From IMG/VR virus record IMGVR_UViG_3300025872_000063, positions 1 to 58,928 of that record: a stretch of 58,928 nt of DNA; one strand, 5' to 3'. This stretch comes from a virus. Taxonomy: Duplodnaviria; Caudoviricetes. The notes below the pieces were generated by a model, which was given only the letters and a program-made list of their open reading frames with translations, was not told where the DNA came from and made no database searches. Positions 30,049 to 47,052 of the stretch are shown piece by piece; position 1 is the first letter of the stretch, and each line of letters begins with the position of its first letter. Both the position numbers and the translations under genes were made by a program.

Positions 30049-30078
30049 ACCTGAAACTGAGAATAATATAATAAACAC

Positions 30079-30357
30079 ATGGACACCGACACAAAGAACA
30101 TCTACGTCAACGTTTACGAGATCACCCGATGCTATGGCGGCCCCGAAGAGGGCGGCTGGTGGTACGACACCGGCGTCACTCTCATCTCAGAGGAGGTTTC
30201 GAACATGGAAGAAGCGTACAATCGTCGCCTCGAACTGCTCGAGGACTATCCTCGCACAGATCGTCGATACTCGGTTCTCGGCGGAGATGACTACGACATT
30301 CTGATCGAAGACACTCCCGGCGAAGACTTTCCCGCCTACAGGCCTCGCTACGAGTAA
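30079..30357 (+). CDS. Conserved phage hypothetical protein (YGGPEEGGWWYD motif)
   Basis: Leaderless ATG 7 nt after TATAAT; acidic. Confidence 0.75.
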   Translation: MDTDTKNIYVNVYEITRCYGGPEEGGWWYDTGVTLISEEVSNMEEAYNRRLELLEDYPRTDRRYSVLGGDDYDILIEDTPGEDFPAYRPRYE

Positions 30358-30381
30358 TTCTGAGAAGAATATAATTACAGC

Positions 30382-30539
30382 ATTGGCGCTGCCTCCCGCA
30401 CCGAAAGGTGTCAGAGAGCCACAACGACTGTCATGGCAGCCAGCAGTCGGACGTACCATGCAATAGGTAGTGCATGGACCCTCTACGTGGGGTAGGGGCA
30501 CGTAGGCCGGCGCCGCAGCGGTAAACCTGCGGCACTTTC
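30382..30539 (+). ncRNA. Candidate structured ncRNA (~160 nt)
   Basis: Own promoter, no RBS or ORF; five consecutive hairpins including GCACC-GAAA-GGTGT, CCATGCA/TGCATGG, CTACGTG/CACGTAG and GCCGCAG/CTGCGGC. Confidence 0.6.
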
Positions 30540-30581
30540 TGAGCAGAGTATAATGTGCTCATCAACGACGAAAGGAACACC

Positions 30582-30905
30582 ATGACCACCACGACTACGA
30601 CGACGACCGTCGTCATCAGTTCGAACGCGACCGTTCTCGACCAGTCGGTCGAAGCGATCATCACCAAGTTCAACGAGACCAAGGCCGCGATCAAGGCGCT
30701 GCAGGCTCAGAAGGACGAGCTGGACACGCAGCTTCGCGAGATGCTTCTCGGTAATGACGTCGGCACCATCAACGGTGTCGAGCGCATCCGCGTCGTCCAG
30801 CGCAACAACAGCAAGATCGACCGCGATCTGCTCAAGACTGCGTGGCCCGAGGCGTACGAGGCGACTCTCGTCGAGACGCCCTACACCGTTCTCCAGGCCA
30901 AGTGA
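30582..30905 (+). CDS. Hypothetical coiled-coil protein
   Basis: Cassette promoter and GAAAGGA RBS. Confidence 0.75.
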   Translation: MTTTTTTTTVVISSNATVLDQSVEAIITKFNETKAAIKALQAQKDELDTQLREMLLGNDVGTINGVERIRVVQRNNSKIDRDLLKTAWPEAYEATLVETPYTVLQAK

Positions 30906-30907
30906 TC

Positions 30908-30951
30908 TCTTCCGGGAGGGTGCGCTGCCTCCTTCGCGCCCTCCCGGAAGA
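30908..30951 (+). terminator. Long hairpin with CCTCCTT loop
   Basis: TCTTCCGGGAGGGTGCG / CGCGCCCTCCCGGAAGA. Confidence 0.65.
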
Positions 30952-30996
30952 ATCTGAGTCGAGTATAATACAATTACACACAACGAAAGGAACACC

Positions 30997-31449
30997 ATGA
31001 CCACCACGACCGCCATTGGACAAGCTCTCTACATCGAGGCCTACAAAGAGGTCGGCGCCAACAAGAACGTGCTGCAGATGCTGCTCGCTCCCGAGACGAC
31101 TGACTCGCTCGGCAACAAGGTCAAGATGACGATGTACCGTCGACGCATCTCGACTCTCGCTCCTCGTAAGACCTGGAAGTCCTGGCGCTCGCCGTTCGAC
31201 GTCTCCTCGGTCATTTCCGCAGGTCTCGCGCTGCCGGACGCCGTCGATCGCATTCTCTCGTTCACTGACTCGACGTTCAGTGCACTTGTCAATCCGACGG
31301 CCGACTACAAGCTCGCCGGCCCTCCGATTCTTGTTGACATCACTCAGGACGATGTCAAGGAGCTCGCCGCCGGCAAGACTCCCTACAAGATCTTCGGCCG
31401 CGTCTGGCGCTGCCGTAAGAAGCTCGGCTACCCGGACGAGTTCCTGTGA
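30997..31449 (+). CDS. Hypothetical protein
   Basis: Cassette promoter and RBS. Confidence 0.75.
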   Translation: MTTTTAIGQALYIEAYKEVGANKNVLQMLLAPETTDSLGNKVKMTMYRRRISTLAPRKTWKSWRSPFDVSSVISAGLALPDAVDRILSFTDSTFSALVNPTADYKLAGPPILVDITQDDVKELAAGKTPYKIFGRVWRCRKKLGYPDEFL

Positions 31450-31509
31450 TCTGAGCTCTGTATAATACTTATTACATAATTAACAACGACAACGACGACA
31501 AGGACAACC

Positions 31510-32511
31510 ATGACCACCACGCACTCCTCAACCGGCAGGCTGCACCCCGAACTTCCGGCAATTCTCTTCGAGTTTGCAACTCAGTCGTGCGACGCTACTT
31601 CCGCAGATAAGATCTCCGCAAGGGTCATCCCTGCAGGCAAGGCGGTGACTCGCACTATCAAGGAGAAGCCCACCGTGCCCTCAACAACCACTCCCGTAGC
31701 TGCTCTCAAGGGCGCCACTTTGTACCTCCGCCCGAACGGCGAGGCGTACTACACCCGCTCGTGGGGTGAGCACGACGACGTCAACGTCCTCCGTGAAGGC
31801 CGTGCCGGCGGCCTCTACTCGCTCATCTACGGCGAGCCCGGCTGCGGCAAGACGGCACTCGTCGAGGCTGCGTTCGCCGAGGAGAGCGGTGGCTTGTTCA
31901 CCGTTCTCGGTTCCGGTGACACCGAGGTCGCCGACCTGGTCGGCGGCTACGTGCAGACGCCCAGCGGAAACTTCGTCTGGGAAGATGGCCCGCTCGTGAA
32001 GGCCGCAGAGGCCGGCGGAACGCTTCTCGTCGACGAGATCGGTCTCATCGACACGAAGGTGCTGGCTGTCATGTACGGCCTCATGGACGGTCGCCGTGAG
32101 TACACCGTCACCGCGAACCCCGAGCGAGGCACTGTCAAGGCTCAGTCCGGGTTCTATGTTGTCGCCGCGACAAACCCGAACGCGCCAGGTGTTCGGCTTT
32201 CCGAGGCTCTTCTGAGCCGGTTCCTGCTCCAGGTCGAGATGACCACCGACTGGTCGCTCGCCAGGAAGCTCGGCGTTCCGACCCAGATGGTCACTGTCGG
32301 CCAGAATCTCTCCAAGAAGCGGACCTCGAACGAAGTTTCGTGGTGCCCGCAGATGCGAGAGCTTCTCGGGTTCCGCGACATCGAAACTCGGTTCGGCACC
32401 AAGTTCGCGATCAGCAACCTGCTTGCAGCAGCCCCCGAGATCGACCGGCCCACGGTCGCCGACGTGTTCAGTCGAGTGTACGGCGAGCCCTGCTTGCCTG
32501 CCAAGATCTGA
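31510..32511 (+). CDS. MoxR/CbbQ/NirQ-type AAA+ ATPase
   Basis: Walker A GEPGCGKT, Walker B LLVDEI, FVWEDGPL, ATNP, ALLSRF. Confidence 0.9.
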   Translation: MTTTHSSTGRLHPELPAILFEFATQSCDATSADKISARVIPAGKAVTRTIKEKPTVPSTTTPVAALKGATLYLRPNGEAYYTRSWGEHDDVNVLREGRAGGLYSLIYGEPGCGKTALVEAAFAEESGGLFTVLGSGDTEVADLVGGYVQTPSGNFVWEDGPLVKAAEAGGTLLVDEIGLIDTKVLAVMYGLMDGRREYTVTANPERGTVKAQSGFYVVAATNPNAPGVRLSEALLSRFLLQVEMTTDWSLARKLGVPTQMVTVGQNLSKKRTSNEVSWCPQMRELLGFRDIETRFGTKFAISNLLAAAPEIDRPTVADVFSRVYGEPCLPAKI

Positions 32512-32607
32512 GCGCAGGCTTGCGGCGGGTTGCCTCGTGGTGGTCGCAGCCCGCCGCAGAATCTGAGTAAGTTATAATGACTAAGTACCCACAACGAAAG
32601 GACGAAC

Positions 32608-34404
32608 ATGGGACACTACAACTTTAGGAGCACGAAGACTGCTCACTCCACATCGCATCCCGAGTGGCTCGCTGTCAGTGCAGCTATCGGACGCATGGTC
32701 AACTTCTGGTCTGGACGCTACGATGTCGCAGCGTTCGCTGGCCCCGGAGCTGGCGAGGGTCATCCAGCCTTCTTCAATCCGAACACCAGCGAGGTCGAGG
32801 TCAACATTGAGAAGTGCTTTGGGCCGGCAACGACTCCCGCAGAGGTTGCGAACATCGATCAGCGATCGGTGCAGTTTGAATGGCCTCGGGCGACCGGCGC
32901 GATTCTTCACGAGTCGTTGCACGCGCGCTATTCGTTCTGGAGCCTCATCGAGGCGCACGACACCCTGACTCCCGCCGAGTTCAACGCTCTCGTTCTTCTC
33001 GAGGAGGGACGAATTGAAGCTCTCGGCATCAAGGCGCTCCCCGGCAACGAACTCTTTCTTCGGACGATGGCGCTCGAGATCGTCCTTGACTCGTTCAAGG
33101 ACATCAACTCGCCATCGGACACGGTGCTCGCAGGCAACATTGCAGCTCTCTCGCTTGCCCGAGTCGACGCCGGCGTACTGACTGACGACGACGTTGCGTC
33201 CATCCGTGATCTCATCTCGGAGAAGCTCGGCGAATCGACGCTCGAGGCTCTCCGTGAGCTCTGGCTGCAGGCTCAGTCGCACAACGACGCGTCGTCCGCC
33301 GAGCCGCTCTACGAGATCGCCCGTGAGTGGGTGCGTGTCATCAACAGCGCGGCTGTCGAGAATGGCGAGCCCGACCCGGGCGCCGGCCAGGACGACGCCG
33401 ACGAGCTCATGTTCAGTCGATTCGGTGAACTGCTCGGTGACATGCTCGACACGGCAGCGGCTGACGTAAGCATCGCAGTGTTCGATGATCTTGCCGACCA
33501 GCAGATGTCCGAGGAATGGAAGAAGGTTGCCAGCGACAAGGCGTCGCAAGCCAAGGACCGCAAGGACGCCGAGAAGATCGCCAGCGACGTCTTCAGCAAG
33601 GGCACGCAAGAGATGCAGACTTCGAAGTCTGGCAGCTCCGTGATCTCATCTCGTGCGCCTAGTGGCGACGAGCGTGCCGCTGCTGTCATCATTGCAAGGC
33701 AGCTCGACAAGGCGAAGTATCGCGATCGCGACGCGACCGAGATCTCGTCGGTCGTTCCTCCCGGTCGACTGCGCACTCGAGCTGCGATGCAGGCCGAGGC
33801 CCTCAAGTCGAAAGGCGCGATGGCCACGGCCGAGCCATGGCGGCGCACCGTCCGCAAGCACACTGACGACCCGACACTTTCCATCGGCGTGATGGTCGAC
33901 ATCAGCGGTTCGATGGGTGATGCGATGCAGCCGATGGCTGTCGCCGCCTGGGCGCTCAGCGAGGCTGTCCGTCGAGTACAGGGCCGCGCCGCGATGGTGT
34001 ACTACGGTAGCGATGCGTTCCCCACTCTCAAGCCGGGACAGCACCTCAGCAAGGTGACCGTGTGGTCTGCGCCTGACGGAACCGAGAAGTTCGATCTCGC
34101 GTTCAAGGCAGTCAACGGTTCTCTCAATCTTCTGTGGGGCACCGGCGCCCGGCTTCTTGTCGTGGTCAGCGACGGATGCTACACGTCGGCAGAGCAGGGT
34201 GCTGCTCGCCAGGCGATGCAGCAGTGCCAGTCGGCTGGTGTCGGAGTTCTCTGGCTCAACTTCAGCGCCTACGGCAATGACGTCAGTCGAATTGTCAAAG
34301 GTACGAACACCGAGGTTGTCTACGTCAAAGGCAGCATCTCGGATGCAGCGACCGCGATTGGCTCGGCTGCAGCGAAGGCATTGACCTCCGCTGCCGCCAG
34401 CTGA
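32608..34404 (+). CDS. vWA-domain protein with N-terminal HExxH metallopeptidase-like domain (CobT-like MoxR partner)
   Basis: HESLH, LLEEGRIE, MIDAS motif DISGSM, VVSDG. Confidence 0.85.
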   Translation: MGHYNFRSTKTAHSTSHPEWLAVSAAIGRMVNFWSGRYDVAAFAGPGAGEGHPAFFNPNTSEVEVNIEKCFGPATTPAEVANIDQRSVQFEWPRATGAILHESLHARYSFWSLIEAHDTLTPAEFNALVLLEEGRIEALGIKALPGNELFLRTMALEIVLDSFKDINSPSDTVLAGNIAALSLARVDAGVLTDDDVASIRDLISEKLGESTLEALRELWLQAQSHNDASSAEPLYEIAREWVRVINSAAVENGEPDPGAGQDDADELMFSRFGELLGDMLDTAAADVSIAVFDDLADQQMSEEWKKVASDKASQAKDRKDAEKIASDVFSKGTQEMQTSKSGSSVISSRAPSGDERAAAVIIARQLDKAKYRDRDATEISSVVPPGRLRTRAAMQAEALKSKGAMATAEPWRRTVRKHTDDPTLSIGVMVDISGSMGDAMQPMAVAAWALSEAVRRVQGRAAMVYYGSDAFPTLKPGQHLSKVTVWSAPDGTEKFDLAFKAVNGSLNLLWGTGARLLVVVSDGCYTSAEQGAARQAMQQCQSAGVGVLWLNFSAYGNDVSRIVKGTNTEVVYVKGSISDAATAIGSAAAKALTSAAAS

Positions 34405-34414
34405 TTGAAGTTCT

Positions 34415-34460
34415 GGGCCGCTTGAGAGGCGTACGTCCTTTCCGTCTCTCAAGCAGGCCC
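34415..34460 (+). terminator. Hairpin with GTCCTTTC loop
   Basis: GCTTGAGAGGCG / CGTCTCTCAAGC stem after the vWA gene. Confidence 0.6.
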
Positions 34461-34628
34461 GCCTATCGCCGTCGATGCAGACGGGCTTGATTCTGAGTCA
34501 GATATAATGACTGCATGATGATTGCCCGCTGCGCGACACCTACCTTGACTGATATCTGAATTCAGGCCTGGTAAGCGCCGCCGGTGCAGACGGGTCCGCT
34601 TCTACAATAGCTACAGCTGAAAGATCAA

Positions 34629-34787
34629 ATGGGACTCTTCACCACGTACATCGGATATAGACTCGGAAGAAAGAAAGCCGCCGCTGAGATCGAAGACATG
34701 CTCGACGATCGTTGCGAGAATTGCGGACACACGCTCAGTCAGCATTCGCGCGATGGACGCCAGCTCTGCCCGACCTATCCAAACTGA
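34629..34787 (+). CDS. Small Cys/His hypothetical protein
   Basis: MGLFTTY...CENCGH; stop is the TGA of the next promoter element. Confidence 0.5.
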   Translation: MGLFTTYIGYRLGRKKAAAEIEDMLDDRCENCGHTLSQHSRDGRQLCPTYPN

Positions 34788-34818
34788 GACACGTATAGTG
34801 TAATCGAAAGGACACGCC

Positions 34819-34983
34819 ATGAAATACATTGTTCGACGCGCCGTGATCAGTCTGCCCGTCTTCATCTTCTTCGTCCGTCGATTCGACGAGCGAGAACTCG
34901 CACCGTACGCTTCCTGGCTGTGGGCCAGTCTGCTGATCTGGGCGATCTGGACTGCTCTGTCCGCCATCGCTGACCCAAACTGA
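34819..34983 (+). CDS. Small membrane protein
   Basis: GAAAGGAC RBS; two hydrophobic segments; stop inside the next element. Confidence 0.6.
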   Translation: MKYIVRRAVISLPVFIFFVRRFDERELAPYASWLWASLLIWAIWTALSAIADPN

Positions 34984-35004
34984 GATCACTATAGTAGGCG
35001 ACAT

Positions 35005-35118
35005 ATGATTATCGAAACTGATGACTGGCTCGAGCAAGCATACGAAGACAGATTCTCCGTCGACGACAACGATGACGCCTATTTCGACGAACTCGACGAC
35101 GATGATGAATCTGAGTAG
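35005..35118 (+). CDS. Very acidic peptide
   Basis: MIIETDDWLEQAYEDRF...DDDDESE. Confidence 0.5.
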   Translation: MIIETDDWLEQAYEDRFSVDDNDDAYFDELDDDDESE

Positions 35119-35158
35119 AGTATAATGTACTCATCAACCAACGACGAAAGGACACAAG

Positions 35159-35527
35159 ATGGACACCACACAGATGGTCAAGGTTGGCAACTTCGGTGTC
35201 GACAGCGGACAGATCGTGGTCATCGACCCCTGCTATGTGTGGGACGACGACTTCATGCCGAACGGCGACCCGACCGGCGGCCCGTATGACGCCGCCTGCC
35301 GCATCACCCTATCCAAGAAGAACTACGGCGAGATCGAGGGCGGCTTTGTCACCAGTACTCTCTACGGTGACGGAACCTACCCCATCTACGCTGAACTGAA
35401 CGAACTCGGTCAGATCGTCCGCATGATCATCGACTTCGATCCCGACTTGAACTGGGACGATGACGATGAAGATGAAGATGAAGACGAAGACGAAGATGTC
35501 GACGATGATAACAACGAGGATGAGTGA
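35159..35527 (+). CDS. Hypothetical protein (DUF4241-like) with acidic tail
   Basis: VDSGQ..V.DP.Y and YGDG.YP.Y motifs; poly-D/E tail. Confidence 0.7.
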   Translation: MDTTQMVKVGNFGVDSGQIVVIDPCYVWDDDFMPNGDPTGGPYDAACRITLSKKNYGEIEGGFVTSTLYGDGTYPIYAELNELGQIVRMIIDFDPDLNWDDDDEDEDEDEDEDVDDDNNEDE

Positions 35528-35530
35528 CAT

Positions 35531-35743
35531 ATGGCGAAGCCATCGATTCAAGACGCAATTGACATACTCAACAACTACGCCGGCGACGTGATGCTGATTG
35601 GTATCGACAAGGTGGCAGAACATGCAGGGCTCAAGCCGAGGGTCGTTCGCAAGTTTACGATCAACGTGCTCGAGGGCAAGAACGCTGACATTCGAAAGAT
35701 CCTCTTGTCAGTCAAAGCTCTAAAGGAGTCCAATGAAGCTTGA
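35531..35743 (+). CDS. HTH-like small protein (paralog of 48798-49073)
   Basis: GIDKVAEHAGLKPRVVRKF versus GVEKVAAKAGVKPSIVKKF. Confidence 0.6.
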   Translation: MAKPSIQDAIDILNNYAGDVMLIGIDKVAEHAGLKPRVVRKFTINVLEGKNADIRKILLSVKALKESNEA

Positions 35744-35903
35744 TCTCTTCGAGCTCAATGGACTTCCGGAAGCCGCTGTGCGCGAACGCATCGCAAGCCT
35801 TGACACAACAATCAAGCATGGCAACTTTGAACCCGTAGTTCTTCGCGAATACGCGAAGGAACTGAAAGCGCTCGTATGGGCGCTTTCAAAGTATTCTGAG
35901 TAA
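35733..35903 (+). CDS. Hypothetical protein
   Basis: AAGGAG RBS; stop TAA inside the next element. Confidence 0.55.
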   Translation: MKLDLFELNGLPEAAVRERIASLDTTIKHGNFEPVVLREYAKELKALVWALSKYSE

Positions 35904-35938
35904 GTTATAATGTACATACACCGAAGAAAGGACACAAC

Positions 35939-36136
35939 ATGGACCACTCACCTCAGATGACGTACTTTGCCACTGATGGCAACTACGGCGACGCAGAGGG
36001 CATCGTCATCATTGACACGCAAAGCTGGACCGAAGACGAATGGACCATCATCGATGAAACACCAGATCGCCAGCGAGCCAGTGTCGCCCTAAGTCTTTCC
36101 AAGTCAAATGATGACCAGCTGGAGCTGTTCAAGTGA
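35939..36136 (+). CDS. Hypothetical protein
   Basis: Cassette promoter and RBS. Confidence 0.65.
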   Translation: MDHSPQMTYFATDGNYGDAEGIVIIDTQSWTEDEWTIIDETPDRQRASVALSLSKSNDDQLELFK

Positions 36137-36399
36137 CTCAACCTGCAGAAGTATCATTCGAGATGCACAAAGATGGTCGATTCACAGACGACCAGCTTTG
36201 GTATTTCGCCGAAGGTGTCAATGACAAGACCAACGAAGAACTTACAGACATTCAGCGCGCCGAGATCTTTGATCTCCTCAAGGACGAAGCAGTCTGGCTT
36301 GTAAATGATCTCGAGCCGTACTTCAAATTTGAAGTCATGCTCGGTCTAGTTCTCTGGTTACGCGGACACAAAGTGTCGACCATTTCTCCAACCTTCTAA
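36133..36399 (+). CDS. Hypothetical protein
   Basis: Coupled GTGA start. Confidence 0.55.
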   Translation: MTQPAEVSFEMHKDGRFTDDQLWYFAEGVNDKTNEELTDIQRAEIFDLLKDEAVWLVNDLEPYFKFEVMLGLVLWLRGHKVSTISPTF

Positions 36400-36579
36400 C
36401 CTAGAAACTGTGAAGAGTATAATGGTAGACATGGCAAACAACCACACAGTTCACGTTCAGTGCAGTACGGAAACCTGTTTCAGCCTCTGGCTCGAACACG
36501 AGAAGTTGGCAAGAACCACTGACATGTACCCGCTCATGTCGCAAGTTCATTCAAATACAGACAACCGAATCGAGAACGT

Positions 36580-36765
36580 ATGACAGCAAAAGCAATTGTG
36601 CGCATTTCTATTCACCAAACAACTGAGAGCAAGCTCACTGTCACGCACACTGACAACGCAGGCGCGTGTTGGAGCGACATCTCCGATGGTGCTGGCCAAG
36701 TCGTGACTATCTTCTTTCGCTCTGCAGAAGAGCGCGATGAGTTCTGGTTCAATGCCTCAGCTTGA
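36580..36765 (+). CDS. Hypothetical protein
   Basis: Coupled to leaderless ORF 36431-36583. Confidence 0.5.
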   Translation: MTAKAIVRISIHQTTESKLTVTHTDNAGACWSDISDGAGQVVTIFFRSAEERDEFWFNASA

Positions 36766-36816
36766 AACTAAGCTAGGTATAATACACCTGCACGACCAAC
36801 TACGAAAGGACACACA

Positions 36817-39891: not shown

Positions 39892-39956
39892 AGACGGACA
39901 AGGAAATAAGTTCTGAGTTTGATATAATAATCTCAGGAACAACGAAAGGACACACG

Positions 39957-40199
39957 ATGAACATCATGGATTTGAAGAATGCTGTCGATCTCGCACTCGA
40001 GCGGGGAATCGACCCTAACTGCACTGTTGTGCTGGGTCTTGGAGACGTTTCTCAGACCCTCGAGTGGGCCATCTTGGACATGATCGAAGATCCGTCAAAC
40101 CCCGACAACACGTATGAGGGTGTGATTTGGTTCACTCTGTTTCCCGGAGAGGAAGCAGATGGCCGCTTCACTCCATGCCATTGGCCCGCGGATGCGTAA
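39957..40199 (+). CDS. Hypothetical protein
   Basis: Cassette promoter and RBS. Confidence 0.7.
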   Translation: MNIMDLKNAVDLALERGIDPNCTVVLGLGDVSQTLEWAILDMIEDPSNPDNTYEGVIWFTLFPGEEADGRFTPCHWPADA

Positions 40200-40307
40200 G
40201 TGTCCCGTAGAAAGTTCAGGCCTGGAAGGGCGCCAGAATGCAGACGGGCCATCTTCGTCAAGTTCTGAGTAAGTTATAATGCACTAGTACGCAAGAAAGG
40301 ACAGCAG

Positions 40308-40475
40308 ATGAAGTGCAAATGCGCGATGTGCGGACGAGACAACTCCGCCAAACTGGGCAGGGCGTCGTACGCCCGTTCAGGGATCTACACCTCCGAGCAA
40401 AAGTCCAAGGGCGACATCAAGCGCATCGAACGTCGCCTCCGTCGTCGTCGTGAGAACTTCGACCTCTCTTTCTGA
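40308..40475 (+). CDS. Small basic Cys-containing protein
   Basis: MKCKCAMCG...RRLRRRR; stop inside the next element. Confidence 0.6.
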   Translation: MKCKCAMCGRDNSAKLGRASYARSGIYTSEQKSKGDIKRIERRLRRRRENFDLSF

Positions 40476-40493
40476 GAAAGGTATAATGACACC

Positions 40494-40655
40494 ATGATCA
40501 GCTACGAACACAAGGGGGGCGCATGGCTGCTTCCTCTCACTGGAACACGCGACGTCCCGACGTGCCAAGACTGCGAAGAGACCAATGGTCTCGAGTTCGT
40601 GTCCTGGATCGACGCCTACCTCTGCCCTGAATGCCTAGCTAACGAACTTGGCTGA
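40494..40655 (+). CDS. Small zinc-ribbon protein (leaderless)
   Basis: CQDC...CPEC. Confidence 0.6.
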   Translation: MISYEHKGGAWLLPLTGTRDVPTCQDCEETNGLEFVSWIDAYLCPECLANELG

Positions 40656-40711
40656 CCTCATTTGCTTTCTGAGCAAGTTATAATGATCTCACAACGACGA
40701 AGGGACAAGCA

Positions 40712-40867
40712 ATGAACACCATCACCGAGGGTCTGATCTTCAAGGCCCGCTGCACGATCGCAGAGATCGAAGACTGCTTCGATATGAACTCGGCGCTCGA
40801 GCTGATCGACAAGCTCTCCCGTCGCATCAATGAACTGATCGACGAGCTGGAGTCGATCAAGAACTGA
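40712..40867 (+). CDS. Small helical protein
   Basis: Cassette promoter and RBS. Confidence 0.6.
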   Translation: MNTITEGLIFKARCTIAEIEDCFDMNSALELIDKLSRRINELIDELESIKN

Positions 40868-40885
40868 GTAAGTTATAATGTACTC

Positions 40886-41170
40886 ACAACATCAACCGCA
40901 CGAAGAGCGCTTCGGCACCGACGTACGGTAGCAAGTCACAAGACGTTAGACGCAAGCCTCTGGCACGATAAGGCTCTCAGCATCCAAAGCGATACTGCTC
41001 TACGACGACCATGGCGTCGCACCAGTCCCTCCTCACGGATCAGATCCGTCCTCCTCTGTACGCATCCGCCACTCTAATCGTCTTACTCTGCTACCCGACT
41101 GCTCCCCGGCCAAGGAGCAGAACGCCGGGCGTTTCCGGAGACCAGCCGGAGCGTTCTTCATGTGGTTGAT
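40886..41170 (+). ncRNA. Rod-shaped ~285-nt ncRNA, copy 1 (possibly Ms1/6S-like)
   Basis: Own promoter; 26-nt terminal stem 40891-40916/41145-41170 (22 WC, 3 G-U, 1 mismatch); paralog at 43278-43555. Confidence 0.8.
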
Positions 41171-41216
41171 TCTGAGCAAGTTATAATGTACTTACCAACG
41201 AGGAAAGGACAAAGCA

Positions 41217-41384
41217 ATGCCGAGCAACTACCCCGACGGAATGCGCGAGTCGGACATCCCGGGCTGGTGGGACGTGGAGTGCCCGACCTGTGAGGAGGAG
41301 GGGTACACCGACGACTGCCCCACCTGCGAGGGAACTGGCAACATCGACAGTCGCAGCCGGTGGGAGCCGGAATACGACGACTGA
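41217..41384 (+). CDS. Small acidic zinc-ribbon protein
   Basis: CPTC...CPTCEGTG. Confidence 0.65.
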   Translation: MPSNYPDGMRESDIPGWWDVECPTCEEEGYTDDCPTCEGTGNIDSRSRWEPEYDD

Positions 41385-41467
41385 ACTCGGCGCCTCGAGC
41401 GCTGGCCGGCGCCTCGAGCGCTGGCCGGCGCCTCGAGCGCAAGAACTAAGAAAGGTATAATGAGACC

Positions 41468-41737
41468 ATGCTCAAGATCAACGTAACAACTTCCCGTCGA
41501 GATGGCGATTATTCCGATGTCTTCATCCAATATGCGGACGACGACAAGATTCACGCCGGCGCAATACGCAAGACGCTGACTGGCAAGTGGAATACCATCG
41601 TCGACGGAGAACTCTACACCGCTCGGACAAAGTCGGACGCCGTTCTCACGGTTTGCTATCTGACTGGACCGAAGTTCTTTTCTGGCGCAGTCTATAAGTA
41701 CGGTGCTTACACACTTGCACTTCCAAGTTCTGAGTAA
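41468..41737 (+). CDS. Hypothetical protein (leaderless)
   Basis: ATG 7 nt after TATAAT; stop inside the next element. Confidence 0.65.
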   Translation: MLKINVTTSRRDGDYSDVFIQYADDDKIHAGAIRKTLTGKWNTIVDGELYTARTKSDAVLTVCYLTGPKFFSGAVYKYGAYTLALPSSE

Positions 41738-41773
41738 GTTATAATGTACTCACCAACGAGGAAAGGACAAAGC

Positions 41774-41998
41774 ATGGACGAGATGATCGTGATCGACACG
41801 CCGGAGGGCATCGAACACTTCCGCCTCGCGGCGCTCATTGCGGCGCTTCGCATCGAAGTCAAGACTGGAATGGTCGGCCGTATGCCGACCCTGCCAGTCG
41901 CCAGGAGCTACGGCGTGCAGGCCAGGACCAAGAAGAAGGCACTCGAGGAGCTCGAGGGCATCTACATGGTCACCTACGGCAGGCCGTACGGATCGTGA
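41774..41998 (+). CDS. Hypothetical protein
   Basis: Cassette promoter and RBS. Confidence 0.7.
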   Translation: MDEMIVIDTPEGIEHFRLAALIAALRIEVKTGMVGRMPTLPVARSYGVQARTKKKALEELEGIYMVTYGRPYGS

Positions 41999-42106
41999 CC
42001 GCCACGGCGGGCCGGCGCAATGAATGCCGGCCCGCCAGGCGGCGCAATGCAGACGGGCCACTTCTGAGCAAGTTATAATGTACTTACAACGAGGAAAGGA
42101 CACACA

Positions 42107-42271
42107 ATGAAGACGAGCAACGAACTTCTCAAGTTGGTCAGGGAGAGCGTGGAGCTCGCGGACGAGCGCAAGAACGTCGGAACGCTTGGCCCGTGGGAGG
42201 CGATCGGTATTCTCAAGAGCACGGTCAACTTTCTCATCACGCACATCGAGCGTGATCAGACTTCTGAGTAA
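42107..42271 (+). CDS. Hypothetical protein
   Basis: Cassette promoter and RBS; stop inside the next element. Confidence 0.6.
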   Translation: MKTSNELLKLVRESVELADERKNVGTLGPWEAIGILKSTVNFLITHIERDQTSE

Positions 42272-42285
42272 GGTATAATGTATTC

Positions 42286-42441
42286 ATGGGAACGACAAAG
42301 AACAACTCGAGGACCAAGTGGGCATGGACAGACGCTGAGCGTCAGGCATTCGCGGATGGCGTCCGCGTCCGTGCACAGCGGATTCCAAACAAGAAGCGCA
42401 TCGCGTCACGGAACGCGTGCCGGCGTGGAGGCGGCGAATGA
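42286..42441 (+). CDS. Small basic protein (leaderless)
   Basis: MGTTKNN...IPNKKRIASRNACRR. Confidence 0.55.
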   Translation: MGTTKNNSRTKWAWTDAERQAFADGVRVRAQRIPNKKRIASRNACRRGGGE

Positions 42442-42500
42442 CCGGCCCGCTAAGCGCCGGCGCGCAGACGGGTCACTTCTAAGAAAGGTATAATGACGAC

Positions 42501-42662
42501 ATGAGCGAATACACCATCCAGGGAAACTACGGCTTCGGCTGGGAAGATCTGACGACCGAAGAAACTATGCCAGAGGCAAAGCAGCGACTCAGCGAGTACA
42601 ACGAGAACGAATCGAGCGTTCCCCATCGAATCAAAGTCAGCGTCAAACTGAGCAAGTTATAA
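42501..42662 (+). CDS. Hypothetical protein (leaderless)
   Basis: IQGNYGFGWEDL; stop is the TAA of the next TATAAT. Confidence 0.6.
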   Translation: MSEYTIQGNYGFGWEDLTTEETMPEAKQRLSEYNENESSVPHRIKVSVKLSKL

Positions 42663-42669
42663 TGACGAC

Positions 42670-42840
42670 ATGAACGACAACGACATCAAGATTCGCGCCC
42701 AAGAGATCGTCCAGACCTGCGAGATGGAGTACCCAGAAGCTGGTGACGAAGCCATCTACCAGATGGCCGTCGACATGAAGTTTCACTCTGGGTGGAGCGA
42801 AGACGACGTGAACGAGTTGCTCAGTGTCCTCGGATTCTGA
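42670..42840 (+). CDS. Acidic hypothetical protein (leaderless)
   Basis: Stop inside the next element. Confidence 0.6.
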   Translation: MNDNDIKIRAQEIVQTCEMEYPEAGDEAIYQMAVDMKFHSGWSEDDVNELLSVLGF

Positions 42841-42879
42841 GCAAGTTATAATGATCTCACAACGAGGAAGGGACAAGCA

Positions 42880-43065
42880 ATGACGTTTGATAACTGGATG
42901 GACAAGGTCGACGAGTTCATGGAGATCCTCTGCGGCCTGAACTCTGAGTGCATCGAAGACTACTGCTACCGCGATGAGTACGACGCCGGCGCCTCGCCGA
43001 AAGAGGTCGCACTGCGCGCTCTCAAGAACGCGAACTACGACACCACTGTCAACTACATTCGGTGA
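42880..43065 (+). CDS. Acidic hypothetical protein
   Basis: MTFDNWMDKVD...YRDEYDAG.SP. Confidence 0.7.
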   Translation: MTFDNWMDKVDEFMEILCGLNSECIEDYCYRDEYDAGASPKEVALRALKNANYDTTVNYIR

Positions 43066-43112
43066 AACTGAGTAAGTTATAATACAATTACACCACGGCG
43101 AAAGGACACCCG

Positions 43113-43259
43113 ATGAACGAGAACAACGAGCCCGACTTCCTTGATCACGGCTGGCAGAACTGCCCCGGCGGGGCGGAGGCCCACCAAGCGCACATGGAGA
43201 TGAACGGCGACTGCCCGTGGTGCGCGTCCTACGACAAGTCCAAGTGGCTCGATTTCTGA
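43113..43259 (+). CDS. Small Cys/His protein
   Basis: Cassette promoter and RBS; CPWC. Confidence 0.55.
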   Translation: MNENNEPDFLDHGWQNCPGGAEAHQAHMEMNGDCPWCASYDKSKWLDF

Positions 43260-43277
43260 GCTTGGTATAATACACTC

Positions 43278-43555
43278 ATCAACCGCACGAAGAGCGCTTC
43301 GGCGCCAACGCGGACGAACCCAAGATAAGGCTCTCTAGCAAGCCTCTGGCACGATAAGGCTCTCAGCATCCAAAGCGATACTGCTCTACGACGACCATGG
43401 CGTCGCACCAGTCCCTCCTCACGGATCAGATCCGTCCTCCTCTGTACGCATCCGCTACTTGAATCCGTCCTCTTGTACCGTCCACCAGTCCCCGGCCAGG
43501 GACTGAAGCGTCGGGGTTTCCGGAGACCAGCCGGAGCGTTCTTCATGTGGTTGAT
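43278..43555 (+). ncRNA. Rod-shaped ~278-nt ncRNA, copy 2 (possibly Ms1/6S-like)
   Basis: Same terminal stem (43278-43303/43530-43555); 118-nt core identical to copy 1; compensatory changes in the flanking helices. Confidence 0.8.
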
Positions 43556-43774
43556 TCTGAGCAAGTTATAATGTACTTACCAACGAGGAAAGGACAAAGC
43601 GATGGATGACGCGATCGAGGCCTGCTGGTTCTGCGGAGACGCCAACGTGCTCATGGTGATCGACGACTGGGAATACGGCGAGTTCGGGGTGTGCACCGAC
43701 TGCGCGGACGATCCCGGCCTGAGCTGAGGCCGGCGCTCGAGCCGGCTGGCCGGCGCTCGAGCCGGCTGGCCGGC
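43553..43774. repeat. 222-bp whole-cassette duplication, copy 1
   Basis: Identical to 44516-44737. Confidence 0.9.
43602..43727 (+). CDS. 41-aa acidic zinc-ribbon peptide, copy 1
   Basis: CWFC...CTDC. Confidence 0.65.
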   Translation: MDDAIEACWFCGDANVLMVIDDWEYGEFGVCTDCADDPGLS

Positions 43775-43834
43775 TGGCCGGCGCAAGTTCTGAGCAAGTT
43801 ATAATGTACTTACCAACGATGAAAGGACACAGCG

Positions 43835-43978
43835 ATGGCAAAGTACTCGACCCGGATGCACGAGGTGTACGACACGCGGTACTGCCTGGTGATCTACTGC
43901 GGTTCGCAGAGCGCCTGCAAGCGGTTCGTGATGAACTCGCCCCGCAAGTGGCTGGCGGTGCGCCCTGCGGGGCGCTGA
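43835..43978 (+). CDS. Small basic protein
   Basis: Cassette promoter and RBS. Confidence 0.55.
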   Translation: MAKYSTRMHEVYDTRYCLVIYCGSQSACKRFVMNSPRKWLAVRPAGR

Positions 43979-44052
43979 GCCGGCTGGCCGGCTGGCCGGC
44001 GCAAGTTCTGAGCAAGTTATAATGTACTTACCAACGAGGAAAGGACAAAGCG

Positions 44053-44271
44053 ATGGTCACGATCGAGCTCGATGTCGCGCACGATGAAATGCCGCTGGAG
44101 CAGGTGCTCCAGACGATTATGGACGAGGTGCCGTCCACCCAAGCCGTGCTGGTCGACGTCAATGGCCCCACGGGCTGGCCTGTGGTCAAGTTCACGATGG
44201 ACGAGAGCGCCCTCGAGCGCTTTGCTGAGGTGTATGGCGCCGACGTGGACGAGCTGCGCGACCTGCTCTGA
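44053..44271 (+). CDS. Acidic hypothetical protein
   Basis: NGPTGWPVV.F. Confidence 0.7.
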   Translation: MVTIELDVAHDEMPLEQVLQTIMDEVPSTQAVLVDVNGPTGWPVVKFTMDESALERFAEVYGADVDELRDLL

Positions 44272-44351
44272 GCCGGCGCTCGAGCCGGCTGGCCGGCTGA
44301 GCCGGCTGGCCGGCTGGCCGGCGCAAGTTCTGAGCAAGTTATAATGTACTC

Positions 44352-44534
44352 ATGAACAGCCGCTGCACGATCAATCAACTCCACTGCGAGAACTGTGGGA
44401 GCACCGACCCGTACGATGTCGAAGATCTTGCCGACACCGATGGGTACACCCGCTGCTGCAATGAGTGCCGCTCGTACGGTCCGAACGACTGCCGGGGGTT
44501 CCACTGCGACTGGGAGATTCTGAGCAAGTTATAA
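44352..44534 (+). CDS. Cys-rich peptide (leaderless)
   Basis: HCENCGS...GYTRCCNE; stop inside the next element. Confidence 0.6.
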   Translation: MNSRCTINQLHCENCGSTDPYDVEDLADTDGYTRCCNECRSYGPNDCRGFHCDWEILSKL

Positions 44535-44737
44535 TGTACTTACCAACGAGGAAAGGACAAAGCGATGGATGACGCGATCGAGGCCTGCTGGTTCTGCGGA
44601 GACGCCAACGTGCTCATGGTGATCGACGACTGGGAATACGGCGAGTTCGGGGTGTGCACCGACTGCGCGGACGATCCCGGCCTGAGCTGAGGCCGGCGCT
44701 CGAGCCGGCTGGCCGGCGCTCGAGCCGGCTGGCCGGC
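44516..44737. repeat. 222-bp whole-cassette duplication, copy 2
   Basis: Identical to 43553-43774. Confidence 0.9.
44565..44690 (+). CDS. 41-aa acidic zinc-ribbon peptide, copy 2
   Basis: Identical to 43602-43727. Confidence 0.65.
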   Translation: MDDAIEACWFCGDANVLMVIDDWEYGEFGVCTDCADDPGLS

Positions 44738-44826
44738 GCTCGAGCCGGCTGGCCGGCGCTCGAGCCGGCGAGCAGGCAAGTTCTGAGTAAGTTATAATGT
44801 ACTTACCAACGAGGAAAGGACACAGG

Positions 44827-45072
44827 ATGAACATCCGAGAACTGATCACGGAGCTCGAGGAGATCGCTGACAGCGCCGCCGAGGGCGACGACCTCAAGGT
44901 CATGATCGCGACGCAGCCGAACTGGCCTCTGCAGGCTGAGATCGCCTGCGTGTCGTACGTCGATGGCCGACTCTACATCGCGGAGGGGTATGCGCCTTAC
45001 GACTCGCCGTACGCGCCTCGAGCAGCCTGGGAGGCTCGCAATGCGGACCAGGACGAGGACTGGGGGGACTGA
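44827..45072 (+). CDS. Hypothetical protein (ATQPNWPL motif)
   Basis: Cassette promoter and RBS. Confidence 0.7.
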   Translation: MNIRELITELEEIADSAAEGDDLKVMIATQPNWPLQAEIACVSYVDGRLYIAEGYAPYDSPYAPRAAWEARNADQDEDWGD

Positions 45073-45166
45073 GGCCGGCGCTCGAGCCGGCGAGCCGGCG
45101 CTCGAGCCGGCTGGCCGGCGCTCGAGCCGGCGAGCAGGCAAGTTCTGAGTAAGTTATAATGTACTC

Positions 45167-45332
45167 ACGATCAGTACTAGTTGGGCGAATCCGCTGTAAC
45201 GGGATTCGTTAAATGAAGCGAGTATCTACATCTTGGGAAGTGCTGAGGCGCGGTAGTGGAAGCCTGCGGGCCATGGAGCTACACGTCTATGACGTACGGA
45301 ATGGGTGTAGTGAAAGAATAGCGGAACCCAAC
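45167..45332 (+). ncRNA. Candidate structured ncRNA (~165 nt)
   Basis: Own promoter, no RBS; GTTGGG..TCCGCT / AGCGGA.CCCAAC long-range stem, TCAGTACT/AGTGCTGA, CTACAC/GTGTAG. Confidence 0.55.
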
Positions 45333-45379
45333 AAATCTAAGCAAGTTATAATGATCTCACAACGACGAAAGGACGCACT

Positions 45380-45589
45380 GTGCAGTACATTACAGATCGC
45401 ACCGTAGAACTCACCGAGTGTGAGGCGCTGATCGCAGAGATTCACGCGCTGCTGATGGACCAAGGAATGCACCAGCATGACGCGGTCGACAAGATTCTCG
45501 GATCGACTGTTCCGATCTACCTCAAGTCCGCTACTCCCATTCTGGACAAGGTGATCTCCGCCGAGTTCATCGCTTGGTTGCGTGAGTGA
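45380..45589 (+). CDS. Hypothetical protein
   Basis: GTG after GAAAGGAC. Confidence 0.6.
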   Translation: MQYITDRTVELTECEALIAEIHALLMDQGMHQHDAVDKILGSTVPIYLKSATPILDKVISAEFIAWLRE

Positions 45590-45624
45590 TTCCGATGCAA
45601 ACTAAGAAATGTACAATTTCAAAC

Positions 45625-45897
45625 ATGAACACGATTCCCAACACTCCCATCACCATCGACGTCTACGCCACGGCCCTCGCCGCCCAGCTCACCGCGCTCG
45701 TCGCCACCGACCCGTCCCGCTACACCGGGGTGTCGTCGTGGGACGACCTCTGCGATCTCTACGACGGACTTCTGAAGGACACCGACGCCTCGCTCGGCTA
45801 CGACGTGGACCTCGCGGATCTCGCGGACTTCGATGGATATGCGGCTATTGTTGTTCCCGCTGTCGATTCAGTCGTCGCTGCGCGCTTCCCGATCTAG
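45625..45897 (+). CDS. Hypothetical protein (leaderless)
   Basis: ATG after TACAAT. Confidence 0.65.
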   Translation: MNTIPNTPITIDVYATALAAQLTALVATDPSRYTGVSSWDDLCDLYDGLLKDTDASLGYDVDLADLADFDGYAAIVVPAVDSVVAARFPI

Positions 45898-45930
45898 CCG
45901 GCTCGGTTCTGAGCAAGTTATAATACTATC

Positions 45931-46197
45931 ATGACGCTGAACATCGCAAAGATCACCCACACCCACACCGACACCGACACCAACACGATCTACTTCACCG
46001 CCGCCTTCATCGAACCCGACGACAACGAAACCTACACGCTCAACATCGCCTACCGTCCGTTCGACGAATCGATCGACATCGACATCGAAGGAAACGCATA
46101 CTCCGCCGACTCCGACACGATCACCGACTCGCAATACTTCGACGACTCCGCGATCGCATTCATCACTCAAACTGCTCGCGATCACAACCTGCTCTAA
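45931..46197 (+). CDS. Acidic hypothetical protein (leaderless)
   Basis: ATG 7 nt after TATAAT. Confidence 0.65.
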   Translation: MTLNIAKITHTHTDTDTNTIYFTAAFIEPDDNETYTLNIAYRPFDESIDIDIEGNAYSADSDTITDSQYFDDSAIAFITQTARDHNLL

Positions 46198-46238
46198 CCG
46201 ACCCTCCGGCTCGGTTCTGAGCAAGTTATAATGTACTC

Positions 46239-46803
46239 ACGGAAAGAAACAACTACAAAGTCAACACGGAAGTTATTCAGGCGACGATGCGACAATATCC
46301 CCTAGGATTGTCAAAGAACAGCATCGCAAGGGTTCGATTCCCTAAACTTTCACTGAGTACCGCAGGTAAGGCAAAGGCACATTGTGCTGGATTATATAGG
46401 GCTCCTATATAGGGGATACCGTGAAATCGGGAACCGCCGAGCGATAATATAGTCTGCAAACTATATTGTCTACTGTTGCAGCAGTAGCCTGTGGGAAAAT
46501 CTAGTGAGGTTCCCTTGGTGGGACGCAAGTGCGATTAGAAAGCCAGAATCGCGGCCTCAACAATTTATGAGGACAGCATCAATATTCCCCCGGCCGGTGA
46601 GATGTTGCCCCAGAGAGAATGCCCGATAGTCCCGGTGGCATTGCCATCAGCGCGAGTAGTAATCGCGCCGAAGCAGGGGGATACCGATAGGCATTGCAAG
46701 GCTTACTCATAAAATCGTATTGCGGGTAGCGGTTGGTCCCGTTACTTAAATGAACTAGCGTATGTCGCCGCAATACGAACCATCTCCGCGAAGCATCTGC
46801 GGA
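46239..46803 (+). ncRNA. Large multi-domain ncRNA candidate (~565 nt)
   Basis: Fills a whole cassette between two promoters with no plus-strand ORF; more than 10 hairpins, a T-loop hairpin and long-range pairings. Confidence 0.75.
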
Positions 46804-46849
46804 TCTGAGAACATTATAGTTATACTCGCAACAACGAAAGGACGCAGCG

Positions 46850-46987
46850 ATGGAAGACATGCTCGGGAAGCTCACGACAACGAGCGGAAGAGTCTTGTTC
46901 GGCGAGATCGTTCTCGTCAACGAGGAAACCGGTGTAACATGTATCGTCCGCGACGGAAAGATCGTGCGGGACGACGAGGAAGAGTAG
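46850..46987 (+). CDS. Small hypothetical protein
   Basis: Cassette promoter and RBS. Confidence 0.55.
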   Translation: MEDMLGKLTTTSGRVLFGEIVLVNEETGVTCIVRDGKIVRDDEEE

Positions 46988-47052
46988 CAACTAGTGAAAC
47001 CTAAAACTAAGAATGCTACAATGTCAATATCACCCGCCGAGAAAGATCAACT

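Follow-up and report, generated by a model that had tools for sequence, protein, structure and literature searches.

A hyperplastic array of short putative transcription units, probably recombining at promoter-like connectors, in an uncultured freshwater actinophage

Results

A one-strand array of connectors

The stretch of DNA analysed here, called the window, is a complete IMG/VR record (IMGVR_UViG_3300025872_000063), a virus contig of 58,928 bases in which one short promoter-like element, the connector, recurs in front of a row of small payloads (Table 1). A first-pass annotation had reported this recurrence at about every 350 bp over 17 kb of the plus strand, and the motif scans bore it out. 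Exact matches to WCTGAG-N5-TATAAT numbered 35 between 30056 and 46232, none of them on the minus strand, against a mean of 0.01 in shuffles. With one mismatch allowed, 49 matches were found in the window, 45 of them on the plus strand within 30056-46820. A relaxed pattern, [AT]CT[GA]AG-N5-TA[TC]A[AGT]T, which admits the variants seen (CTAAG; TATAGT or TACAAT), gave 47 copies from 30056 to 47022, again all on the plus strand, with a mean spacing of 368 bp and a median of ~288 bp.

The conserved block was longer than the motif first described and read t-TCTGAG-yAAGt-TATAAT-GtaCTcA, with conservation spanning -1 to +24 of the motif. It consisted of a tTCTGAG hexamer at about -23 to -18, a G at -14, the -10 hexamer (TATAAT in 35 of 47 copies, otherwise TATAGT, TACAAT or one-mismatch variants) and a conserved 6-nt discriminator; the seventh base after TATAAT was A in 38 of 47 copies. 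The upstream block carried 1.2-2.4 bit per position and was as conserved as the -10. No conservation of a -35 box or an AT-rich tract was seen further upstream, positions -45 to -2 before the motif all being <0.3 bit, and a two-hexamer sigma-70 scan returned 13 matches, of which two coincided by coordinate with the -10 of a motif copy (40471, 47006). Because of these two results, the lack of a -35 box, also noted at first pass, is taken as real. The leader and ribosome-site part, CAACGAsGAAAGGACA, was present before 30 open reading frames (ORFs), always 21-27 nt behind the -10 block, and was kept across lineages including Actinomycetia phage DSL-LC01; 14 connectors without it kept the promoter block. 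The connector was asymmetric, with no dyad symmetry of its own. These features support the anatomy of a putative -10-dominant promoter with a fixed presumed start point, in agreement with the promoter-like role first proposed.

Payloads behind the connectors

Behind the 47 copies were 30 ORFs led by a Shine-Dalgarno (SD) site, 9 leaderless ORFs, 1 ORF with a long leader, 1 ORF whose start lies 9 nt past the -10, 5 payloads that are non-coding and a single doubtful case. For 8 of the 47 copies no start was called by script, and inspection resolved these into 2 ORFs, the 5 non-coding payloads and the doubtful copy. At the SD-led copies (30/47), a GAAAGGA-type site lay 4-10 nt before the start, and the presumed 5′ untranslated region measured 21-24 nt in 26 of the 30. 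At the leaderless copies, the distance from the -10 to the ATG was 6 nt in eight cases and 7 nt in one, so the conserved A is that of the ATG, and the ORFs opened there measured 51-92 aa.

The coding status of the ORFs was assessed from the GC content at codon positions 1, 2 and 3 (GC1, GC2, GC3). GC3 exceeded GC2 in 43/43 small ORFs (means 0.57/0.39/0.71), and a frame-shifted control moved the pattern by one phase. The small array ORFs are real coding genes. In the five non-coding payloads no frame stayed open and GC was flat by codon phase. A Pfam search with 50 array ORFs gave only an AAA_5 ATPase and DUF1281_C above cut-off, other matches being weak and below the curated cut-offs. PHROG matches were obtained for 9 of 44 small proteins, eight of them in families of unknown function, and several array products were short CxxC proteins. 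Among 42 listed ORFs after 34.5 kb, 12 had homologues in DSL-LC01 or in the related contigs G001 or G003 described below. The exact duplication of one whole cassette, also claimed at first pass, was confirmed over 222 nt without a single difference (43553-43774 and 44516-44737).

The AAA_5 (MoxR-like) ATPase and a 598-aa protein with a weak VWA match (31510-34404) form a conserved pair inside the array, each with its own connector. The pair was retained in DSL-LC01 and in more distant contigs.

A candidate structured RNA among the non-coding payloads

Two of the non-coding payloads were copies of one sequence of ~285 nt, here named RNA A (cassettes 24 and 34), with an identical 117-nt core and differing arms. 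Both folded far better than shuffles (z -4.95 and -3.23), and the consensus fold contained 70 pairs, of which 7 were changed on both sides and none was broken. The closing helix of 25 bp included four G-U pairs; read from the opposite strand, these would turn into C-A mismatches. The sole ORF within RNA A was truncated in the second copy. With only two copies, these observations are suggestive of a real structured RNA rather than proof of one. In the fold, two CCUCC stretches stood unpaired beside a small hairpin and resembled the anti-SD sequence. At the gathering score, Rfam returned from the window four tRNAs alone, and an E value of up to 1 added three chance matches to microRNA families. 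The non-coding payloads had no BLAST match among 121 loci, and an exact pattern of the 24-nt core of RNA A had 0 matches in viral and genome contig collections.

Payload D folded only weakly better than shuffles (z -2.2); payloads B and C and the leader of cassette 7 folded no better, and C scored alike on both strands. The first reading, in which each connector opens a leadered ORF, a leaderless ORF or a structured RNA, was thus upheld for both ORF classes and for the presence of non-coding payloads, five in number, while a supported structure was obtained for one RNA in two copies and not for the other three payloads.

Related arrays and turnover of cassettes

The nearest named record to the window was DSL-LC01, a complete 129-kb genome assembled from a lake metagenome (protein identity 85% for the terminase and 81% for the primase), followed by 186-195-kb Microbacterium phages at ~62%. 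The flanks of the array were colinear with DSL-LC01 (14/14 flank genes in order, Kendall tau 1.0), indicating that the window is a fragment of an uncultured freshwater actinophage related to it. The array itself had no megablast match among 50,697 phage records. An exact scan for the WCTGAG-type motif gave 0 matches in IMG/VR and 13 loci in JGI metagenomes, of which 12 were single chance matches and only contig L011 was a relative. A full-text search of the literature, covering main texts, found no description of the array, and a term search of the DSL-LC01 paper (PMC10611076) did not find the word "promoter".

No copy of the window's own motif was present in DSL-LC01. Instead, a variant connector, (g)aTTCTAAAGwTGTTATAAT, followed by the same leader, preceded 31 of 61 gene starts inspected. 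The strict form TCTAAAG-N4-TATA(A/G)T occurred 21 times in the complete genome, always on the plus strand and within 22.6-43.3 kb. A TGT stands directly before its -10 and makes this a classical extended -10, of which the window retains the G at -14 only. Five IMG/VR contigs carried 50, 50, 44, 11 and 14 copies of the TCTAAAG-type connector, on one strand each, and a reversed control gave 0. The block upstream of the -10 was uniform within a genome and differed by lineage (TCTGAG vs TCTAAAG), even before orthologous ORFs. The presence of connector arrays in DSL-LC01 and the five contigs thus indicates that the architecture is a family trait.

Close relatives were then compared for cassette content. 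L011, a metagenome contig, matched the window at 99% over 42743-42875 and at 100% over 43783-45101. Where the window has 907 nt with four cassettes between the matched sides (two with ORFs, the second copy of RNA A, and copy 1 of the duplicate cassette), L011 had 178 nt, which contained a 53-aa ORF absent from the window; the left breakpoint fell in the leader and the right one 6 nt before TCTGAG. G003 and G001 were ~96% identical over 19 kb in seven aligned blocks with six junctions. Four of the six were presence or absence of a single cassette (347, 223, 244 and 274 bp), a pair of connector copies in one genome facing a single copy in the other, and with block ends at -5 to +58 of the motif; the fifth was also at cassette level and the sixth lay within a cassette. 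G001 and G002, from different samples, had identical spacing of all 50 copies, which speaks for the fidelity of the assemblies. Within the window itself, the 222-nt exact duplicate and the second copy of RNA A are further signs of turnover. The order of shared array ORFs was unrelated between the window and its relatives (Kendall tau 0.17 vs G003, n=9; 0.20 vs DSL-LC01, n=5).

These comparisons of assembled sequences show cassette indels, replacement at connectors and shuffled order in natural relatives. The accordion-like gain, loss and duplication first suggested for the array therefore gained support, since array order was not kept and breakpoints lay in connectors (L011; 5/6 G003/G001 junctions). 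The pattern is what unequal homologous recombination between direct repeats gives, and we infer recombination of this kind. RecA-like, RuvC-like and PD-(D/E)XK genes are named in the annotation of DSL-LC01.

Logan contigs from four freshwater DNA runs were also aligned to the array at 90% likeness. Contigs of run X1, which may be the source sample, tiled most of the array with 0 differences. Loose contig ends diverged at or next to start codons (36812, 43837, 44824), which may only mean that relatives share connectors. Contigs of three runs joined 45093 back to 42011, and contigs of two runs skipped 214 nt inside payload C (46354-46569); strain variants, a duplication or a circle may lie behind these joints. 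None of the joints listed, including these two, was counted as evidence, their short sides being 20-35 nt (70 nt in X4 for the joint from 45093 to 42011).

Discussion

Interpretation of the array

The reading that we favour, at a probability of about three in four, holds that short transcription units form a hyperplastic array in this uncultured freshwater actinophage and recombine at promoter-like connectors. A unit would consist, in order, of a GC-rich hairpin in some cases, tTCTGAG, the G at -14, TATAAT, the 6-nt discriminator and the A at the presumed start, followed by a 21-24-nt leader with GAAAGGA, by the ATG itself, or by an RNA. The connectors would be read by the host RNA polymerase with its primary sigma factor as -10-dominant promoters that need no -35 box, and the units would be expressed early. 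Because a near-identical connector of 50-100 nt recurs 47 times in one direction, recombination between its copies would delete, duplicate, replace and reorder payloads. Promoter activity, the reading polymerase, timing and payload function are what we infer from the sequence.

No sigma factor or RNA polymerase is named in the depositors' annotation of DSL-LC01, and among the window ORFs scanned there was no match to sigma or RNA polymerase families, nor was a repressor gene found. In actinobacteria, promoters for the primary sigma factor often depend on no element but the -10, and leaderless messages are frequent. It is for these reasons that host sigma-A is favoured as the probable reader.

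Codon usage also differed along the window. GC3 was 0.73 in array genes and 0.40 in core genes, and the switch coincided with the last cassette. The four phage tRNAs read the A-ending codons ATA (Ile-TAT), AGA (Arg-TCT), ACA (Thr-TGT) and GGA (Gly-TCC), whose shares in their codon families were 3, 3, 12 and 22% in the array vs 28, 36, 46 and 50% in the core. This split would fit early expression on the host tRNA pool.

Several observations weigh against the favoured reading. A strong hairpin (-30 kcal/mol or stronger in the upstream 72-nt fold) was found before 12 of the 47 connectors, and hairpin-plus-T-tract terminators were not enriched (14 vs 14.9 in shuffles); many units may therefore be co-transcribed. 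The -23 to -18 hexamer is no known primary-sigma element, and its lineage-specific form (TCTGAG vs TCTAAAG) could mean that a phage factor reads it. In DSL-LC01, a 3289-aa ORF (52800-62669; 2800-12669 of L125) lies in the virion module between portal and capsid protease, and searches of Pfam, PHROGs and PDB sequences gave no match for its product. This region lies beyond the end of the window. The unmatched protein therefore leaves room for a private polymerase. The codon split was weak in DSL-LC01 (array about 0.73, core 0.59-0.67) and so does not mark the array in general; it may reflect the history of the window lineage and not timing. Lastly, all compared genomes are short-read assemblies through repeats. 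L011, a short-read contig of 1.6 kb, could be a chimera of co-occurring strains, and the cassette indels between assemblies could in principle stem from repeat collapse.

The ends of the units were also inspected. The upstream 72-nt fold averaged -25.2 at connectors vs -18.7 at random array positions. In 10 of 39 cases the ORF ended inside the next connector, which offers stop codons in three frames: TGA, frequently a TAA, and the TAA within TATAAT. GC-rich tandem repeats of 19-20 nt (unit GGCCGGCGCTCGAGCCGGCT), with 2.3 to 4 copies each, lay between stop codon and next connector at the sites given in Table 1; their folds are hairpin stacks of very high stability that have no T tract, and several of the 12 strong hairpins are such stacks. 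Each unit has a promoter-like head, and most units are uninsulated from their neighbours, so that the initial description of the cassettes as self-contained was overstated.

The alternative that fares best, although unlikely, is a phage-private regulon, in which the upstream block is bound by a WhiB-like sigma-A adaptor, a stoperator-like repressor or a virion-delivered polymerase. Switching of the array, on or off, would then lie with the phage, in place of constitutive immediate-early expression. The block matches the -10 in conservation yet is placed where no standard sigma contact is known, and its uniformity per genome with differences by lineage, even upstream of orthologous ORFs, would be expected of a private recognition site; gene conversion between recombining repeats, however, also yields uniformity within a genome. 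Two WhiB proteins are encoded in the window and two are annotated in DSL-LC01, whose 3289-aa virion-module protein has no assigned family. On the other hand, a perfect TATAAT with the G at -14 and the fixed A is a primary-sigma signature that should suffice alone, and the scanned window ORFs yielded no repressor or sigma gene. The block itself could be a spacer contact, an operator or a product of gene-conversion homogenisation.

Slightly less likely again is a linked pair of proposals, that the -23 to -18 block is a new actinobacterial promoter determinant replacing the -35 box and that RNA A is an anti-SD decoy. The block may be read by a host polymerase re-tooled by a phage WhiB protein, or by an unrecognised virion-delivered polymerase, and may co-evolve by lineage (TCTGAG, TCTAAAG), which would make the array a phage-private transcription class. 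RNA A, through its two unpaired CCUCC motifs, could capture GGAGG-type host messages, and the phage's own messages, with GAAAGGA leaders or leaderless, would escape capture.

We consider it very improbable that the repeats are sites of a site-specific recombinase, comparable to integron attC sites and served for example by the serine recombinase of the window, with their promoter look being secondary. The one-directional array with short ORF cassettes between repeats, the whole-cassette indels and the resolvase-family gene in both the window and DSL-LC01 would agree with such a role. However, the repeat itself lacks dyad symmetry, the L011 breakpoints fall at different connector positions (in the leader; before TCTGAG), and the fixed distance to the ATG or ribosome site is explained by transcription and translation and not by recombination. 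The recombinase gene is also 20 kb off on the other strand, and no integron-type tyrosine integrase was seen. Equally improbable is an element acting on RNA, by which every repeat would be a point of cleavage or of translational coupling within one long transcript, a role that has been proposed for start-associated sequences, with TATAAT incidental: the few terminators, the leader CAACGAsGAAAGGACA conserved across lineages and its resemblance to GGGAAAGGACCCC, the start-associated motif described for Microbacterium cluster EF phages (PMC7302621), speak for it, but only a transcription start explains nine leaderless ORFs 6-7 nt after TATAAT, and RNA payloads without a ribosome site retain the upstream block.

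Comparison with known systems

An array recombining at promoter-like connectors, as favoured here, has its closest known analogue in the PeSLs (promoter-early stem-loops) of T4-like phages, to which the first-pass annotation had compared it. PeSLs are described as composites of stop, AT-rich tract, -35, -10, stem-loop, ribosome site and start, with ~50 copies per genome, which sit in hyperplastic regions before genes without relatives and mediate indels and replacements (Arbiol et al., 2010, PMC2839356; Comeau et al., 2014, PMC4122927). The analogy fits. In both systems a composite stop/promoter/ribosome-site/start motif with a -10 occurs in about 50 copies per genome, before small genes without known relatives in a hyperplastic region, and the indel and replacement breakpoints between close relatives fall in the motif. 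In contrast to PeSLs so described, the connector has no -35 box or AT-rich tract and instead has the -23 to -18 hexamer and the G at -14, and a hairpin is found at only about a quarter of the copies. Nine copies are predicted to drive leaderless ORFs and five non-coding payloads, the array is single and contiguous whereas PeSLs occupy several regions, and the host is an actinobacterium, PeSLs being found in T4-like phages of Gram-negative hosts. The array is also known from sequence, whereas reporter assays of promoter and terminator activity and mini-circles belong to the PeSL evidence.

Two kinds of actinophage elements were compared as well. Start-associated sequences (SAS/ESAS), with a conserved block 3-7 bp before the start, are described in cluster K mycobacteriophages (PMC3203893) and Microbacterium cluster EF phages (PMC7302621). 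Like the connector leader, they place a conserved ribosome-site block shortly before the starts of many non-structural genes, in one orientation and even before unrelated genes, and the cluster EF motif GGGAAAGGACCCC has GAAAGGAC in common with the window leader (PMC7302621). As described there, however, SAS are 13-bp elements without an attached -10, whereas the window leader always stands behind a -10 block; their ~93 sites over six genomes are far sparser than 47 in 17 kb; and the passages describing them do not tie them to cassette indels. Cluster EC Microbacterium phages are described with an 18-bp intergenic TAGaCT-containing motif, TAGaCTATaGGTgTaAgC, of unknown function in 12 copies per genome (PMC7302621). 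It resembles the connector as an asymmetric -10-like repeat in short intergenic gaps of actinophages, 21-30 bp before starts and in one orientation. It differs in that the 12 copies are scattered and form no array, and no recombination role is reported in the text describing it.

A more distant likeness exists to other gene rows. Cassettes in integrons lack promoters and depend for their movement on a tyrosine integrase that acts at attC sites. They share with the array a one-directional row of short unrelated exchangeable ORFs between repeats. However, the window units carry their own promoter-like element, the window shows a serine resolvase-family recombinase only and no tyrosine integrase was seen, and attC sites have imperfect dyad symmetry whereas the connector is asymmetric. 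The host-takeover module of Bacillus phage SPO1 is a dense set of small early genes with many strong host-type promoters that have a -35 box, and with strong ribosome sites. It resembles the array as a dense block of small genes, each rich in promoter and ribosome-site signals. To our knowledge, the SPO1 module has not been described as a recombination array, and it has fewer promoters than the window array.

PeSL-like shuffling behaviour is already known. New here are the actinobacterial host group, the -35-less connector with its lineage-specific upstream block, the leaderless and RNA payloads behind the same promoter-like element, and the density of 47 copies in 17 kb. Promoter-mediated modular shuffling is extended to an uncultured freshwater actinophage family with 11-50 one-strand connector copies per contig. 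The array offers a natural set of 47 near-identical putative promoters with SD-led, leaderless and RNA payloads side by side, and hence a test bed for -10-only promoters in actinobacteria, for the contribution of the conserved spacer element, and for leaderless versus SD-led initiation. Its ~40 small proteins, most of which have no known relatives, make candidate host-takeover or anti-defence factors, acting in hosts that cannot yet be cultivated.

Other features of the window and further candidates

Outside the array, the window codes for a collagen-like tail fibre, an endolysin, an exonuclease, a primase-helicase, a resolvase-family recombinase, ribonucleotide reductase, thymidylate synthase, the large terminase and PhoH, as well as four tRNAs and two WhiB proteins.

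Table 1. Connector cassettes and other features of the window. The first ORF of a cassette is SD-led unless another type is given or discussed in the text.
Feature	Position	Strand	Description
Whole array	30056..47397	+	47 connector copies and payloads; from motif scans and start calls
Cassette 1	30056..30358	+	connector ACTGAG..TATAAT; leaderless ORF 30079-30357 (92 aa); PHROG of unknown function
Cassette 2	30359..30537	+	non-coding payload D 30376-30537; no ORF, flat GC by phase; fold z -2.2
Cassette 3	30538..30952	+	SD-led ORF 30582-30905 (107 aa); DSL-LC01 homologue
Cassette 4	30953..31449	+	SD-led ORF 30997-31449 (150 aa)
Cassette 5	31450..32561	+	SD-led AAA_5 ATPase 31510-32511 (333 aa)
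Cassette 6	32562..34491	+	SD-led 598-aa protein 32608-34404, weak VWA match
Cassette 7	34492..34782	+	114-nt leader, ORF 34629-34787 (52 aa); DSL-LC01 homologue
Cassette 8	34783..34978	+	TATAGT variant; ORF 34819-34983 (54 aa)
Cassette 9	34979..35109	+	TATAGT variant; ORF 35005-35118 (37 aa), start 9 nt after -10
Cassette 10	35110..35894	+	three ORFs: 35159-35527, 35531-35743, 35733-35903
Cassette 11	35895..36766	+	ORFs 35939-36136, 36133-36399, 36410-36583, 36580-36765; one-mismatch motif at 36407
Cassette 12	36767..37498	+	ORF 36817-37503 (228 aa, DUF1281_C)
Cassette 13	37499..37819	+	ORF 37545-37808 (87 aa)
Cassette 14	37820..38295	+	ORF 37867-38235 (122 aa)
Copy 15, doubtful connector	38296..38392	+	TACAAT; 97 nt, no ORF
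Cassette 16	38393..38695	+	ORF 38437-38691 (84 aa)
Cassette 17	38696..38907	+	GTG-start ORF 38743-38889 (48 aa)
Cassette 18	38908..39278	+	ORF 38952-39254 (100 aa)
Cassette 19	39279..39911	+	ORFs 39324-39569 (81 aa), 39626-39805 (59 aa)
Cassette 20	39912..40263	+	ORF 39957-40199 (80 aa)
Cassette 21	40264..40470	+	ORF 40308-40475 (55 aa); stop is TGA of next connector
Cassette 22	40471..40667	+	leaderless ORF 40494-40655 (53 aa)
Cassette 23	40668..40862	+	ORF 40712-40867 (51 aa)
Cassette 24	40863..41170	+	candidate structured RNA A, copy 1 (~285 nt), 40880-41170
Cassette 25	41171..41444	+	ORF 41217-41384 (55 aa, CxxC pairs), then 19-nt tandem repeats
Cassette 26	41445..41728	+	leaderless ORF 41468-41737 (89 aa)
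Cassette 27	41729..42062	+	ORF 41774-41998 (74 aa)
Cassette 28	42063..42262	+	ORF 42107-42271 (54 aa)
Cassette 29	42263..42477	+	leaderless ORF 42286-42441 (51 aa)
Cassette 30	42478..42646	+	leaderless ORF 42501-42662 (53 aa)
Cassette 31	42647..42835	+	leaderless ORF 42670-42840 (56 aa)
Cassette 32	42836..43066	+	ORF 42880-43065 (61 aa); absent from L011
Cassette 33	43067..43254	+	ORF 43113-43259 (48 aa); absent from L011
Cassette 34	43255..43555	+	candidate structured RNA A, copy 2, 43272-43555; absent from L011
Cassette 35	43556..43788	+	ORF 43602-43727 (41 aa), duplicate copy 1; absent from L011
Cassette 36	43789..44006	+	ORF 43835-43978 (47 aa)
Cassette 37	44007..44328	+	ORF 44053-44271 (72 aa)
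Cassette 38	44329..44518	+	leaderless Cys-rich ORF 44352-44534 (60 aa)
Cassette 39	44519..44781	+	ORF 44565-44690 (41 aa), duplicate copy 2, then four 20-nt repeats
Cassette 40	44782..45143	+	ORF 44827-45072 (81 aa), then 20-nt repeats
Cassette 41	45144..45335	+	non-coding payload B 45161-45335; flat GC by phase; fold z -0.36
Cassette 42	45336..45600	+	TCTAAG variant; GTG-start ORF 45380-45589 (69 aa)
Cassette 43	45601..45907	+	TACAAT variant; ORF 45625-45897 (90 aa), start 7 nt after -10
Cassette 44	45908..46215	+	leaderless ORF 45931-46197 (88 aa)
Cassette 45	46216..46803	+	non-coding payload C 46233-46803 (571 nt); no open frame, flat GC; fold z -1.8 (+), -1.9 (-)
Cassette 46	46804..47005	+	TATAGT variant; ORF 46850-46987 (45 aa)
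Cassette 47	47006..47397	+	TACAAT variant; ORF 47053-47397 (114 aa, GC3 0.47); array and GC3-rich domain end here
Tandem-repeat sites	41388-41440, 43728-43774, 44691-44769, 45074-45139		copy number varies by site
Resolvase-family serine recombinase	10133-10912	opposite to array	20 kb from array
WhiB-family transcription factor genes (two)	19385-19738, 51653-51913		flank array at a distance
tRNA genes (four)	11331, 26100, 26179, 26256		the four tRNAs named in the text

Two further groups of candidates were set aside. Relatives of a CobT-like protein (L002-L004, 46-48% identity) had other repeated words and no comparable connector. Microbacterium phage Pumpernickel, which has many small genes, showed ordinary TTGACA/TAGACT promoters, some of them leaderless, and no uniform connector; in its positions 1-20000 (L122), many small genes of the left arm have a TAGACT-type -10 that ends 6 nt before their start and are probably leaderless.

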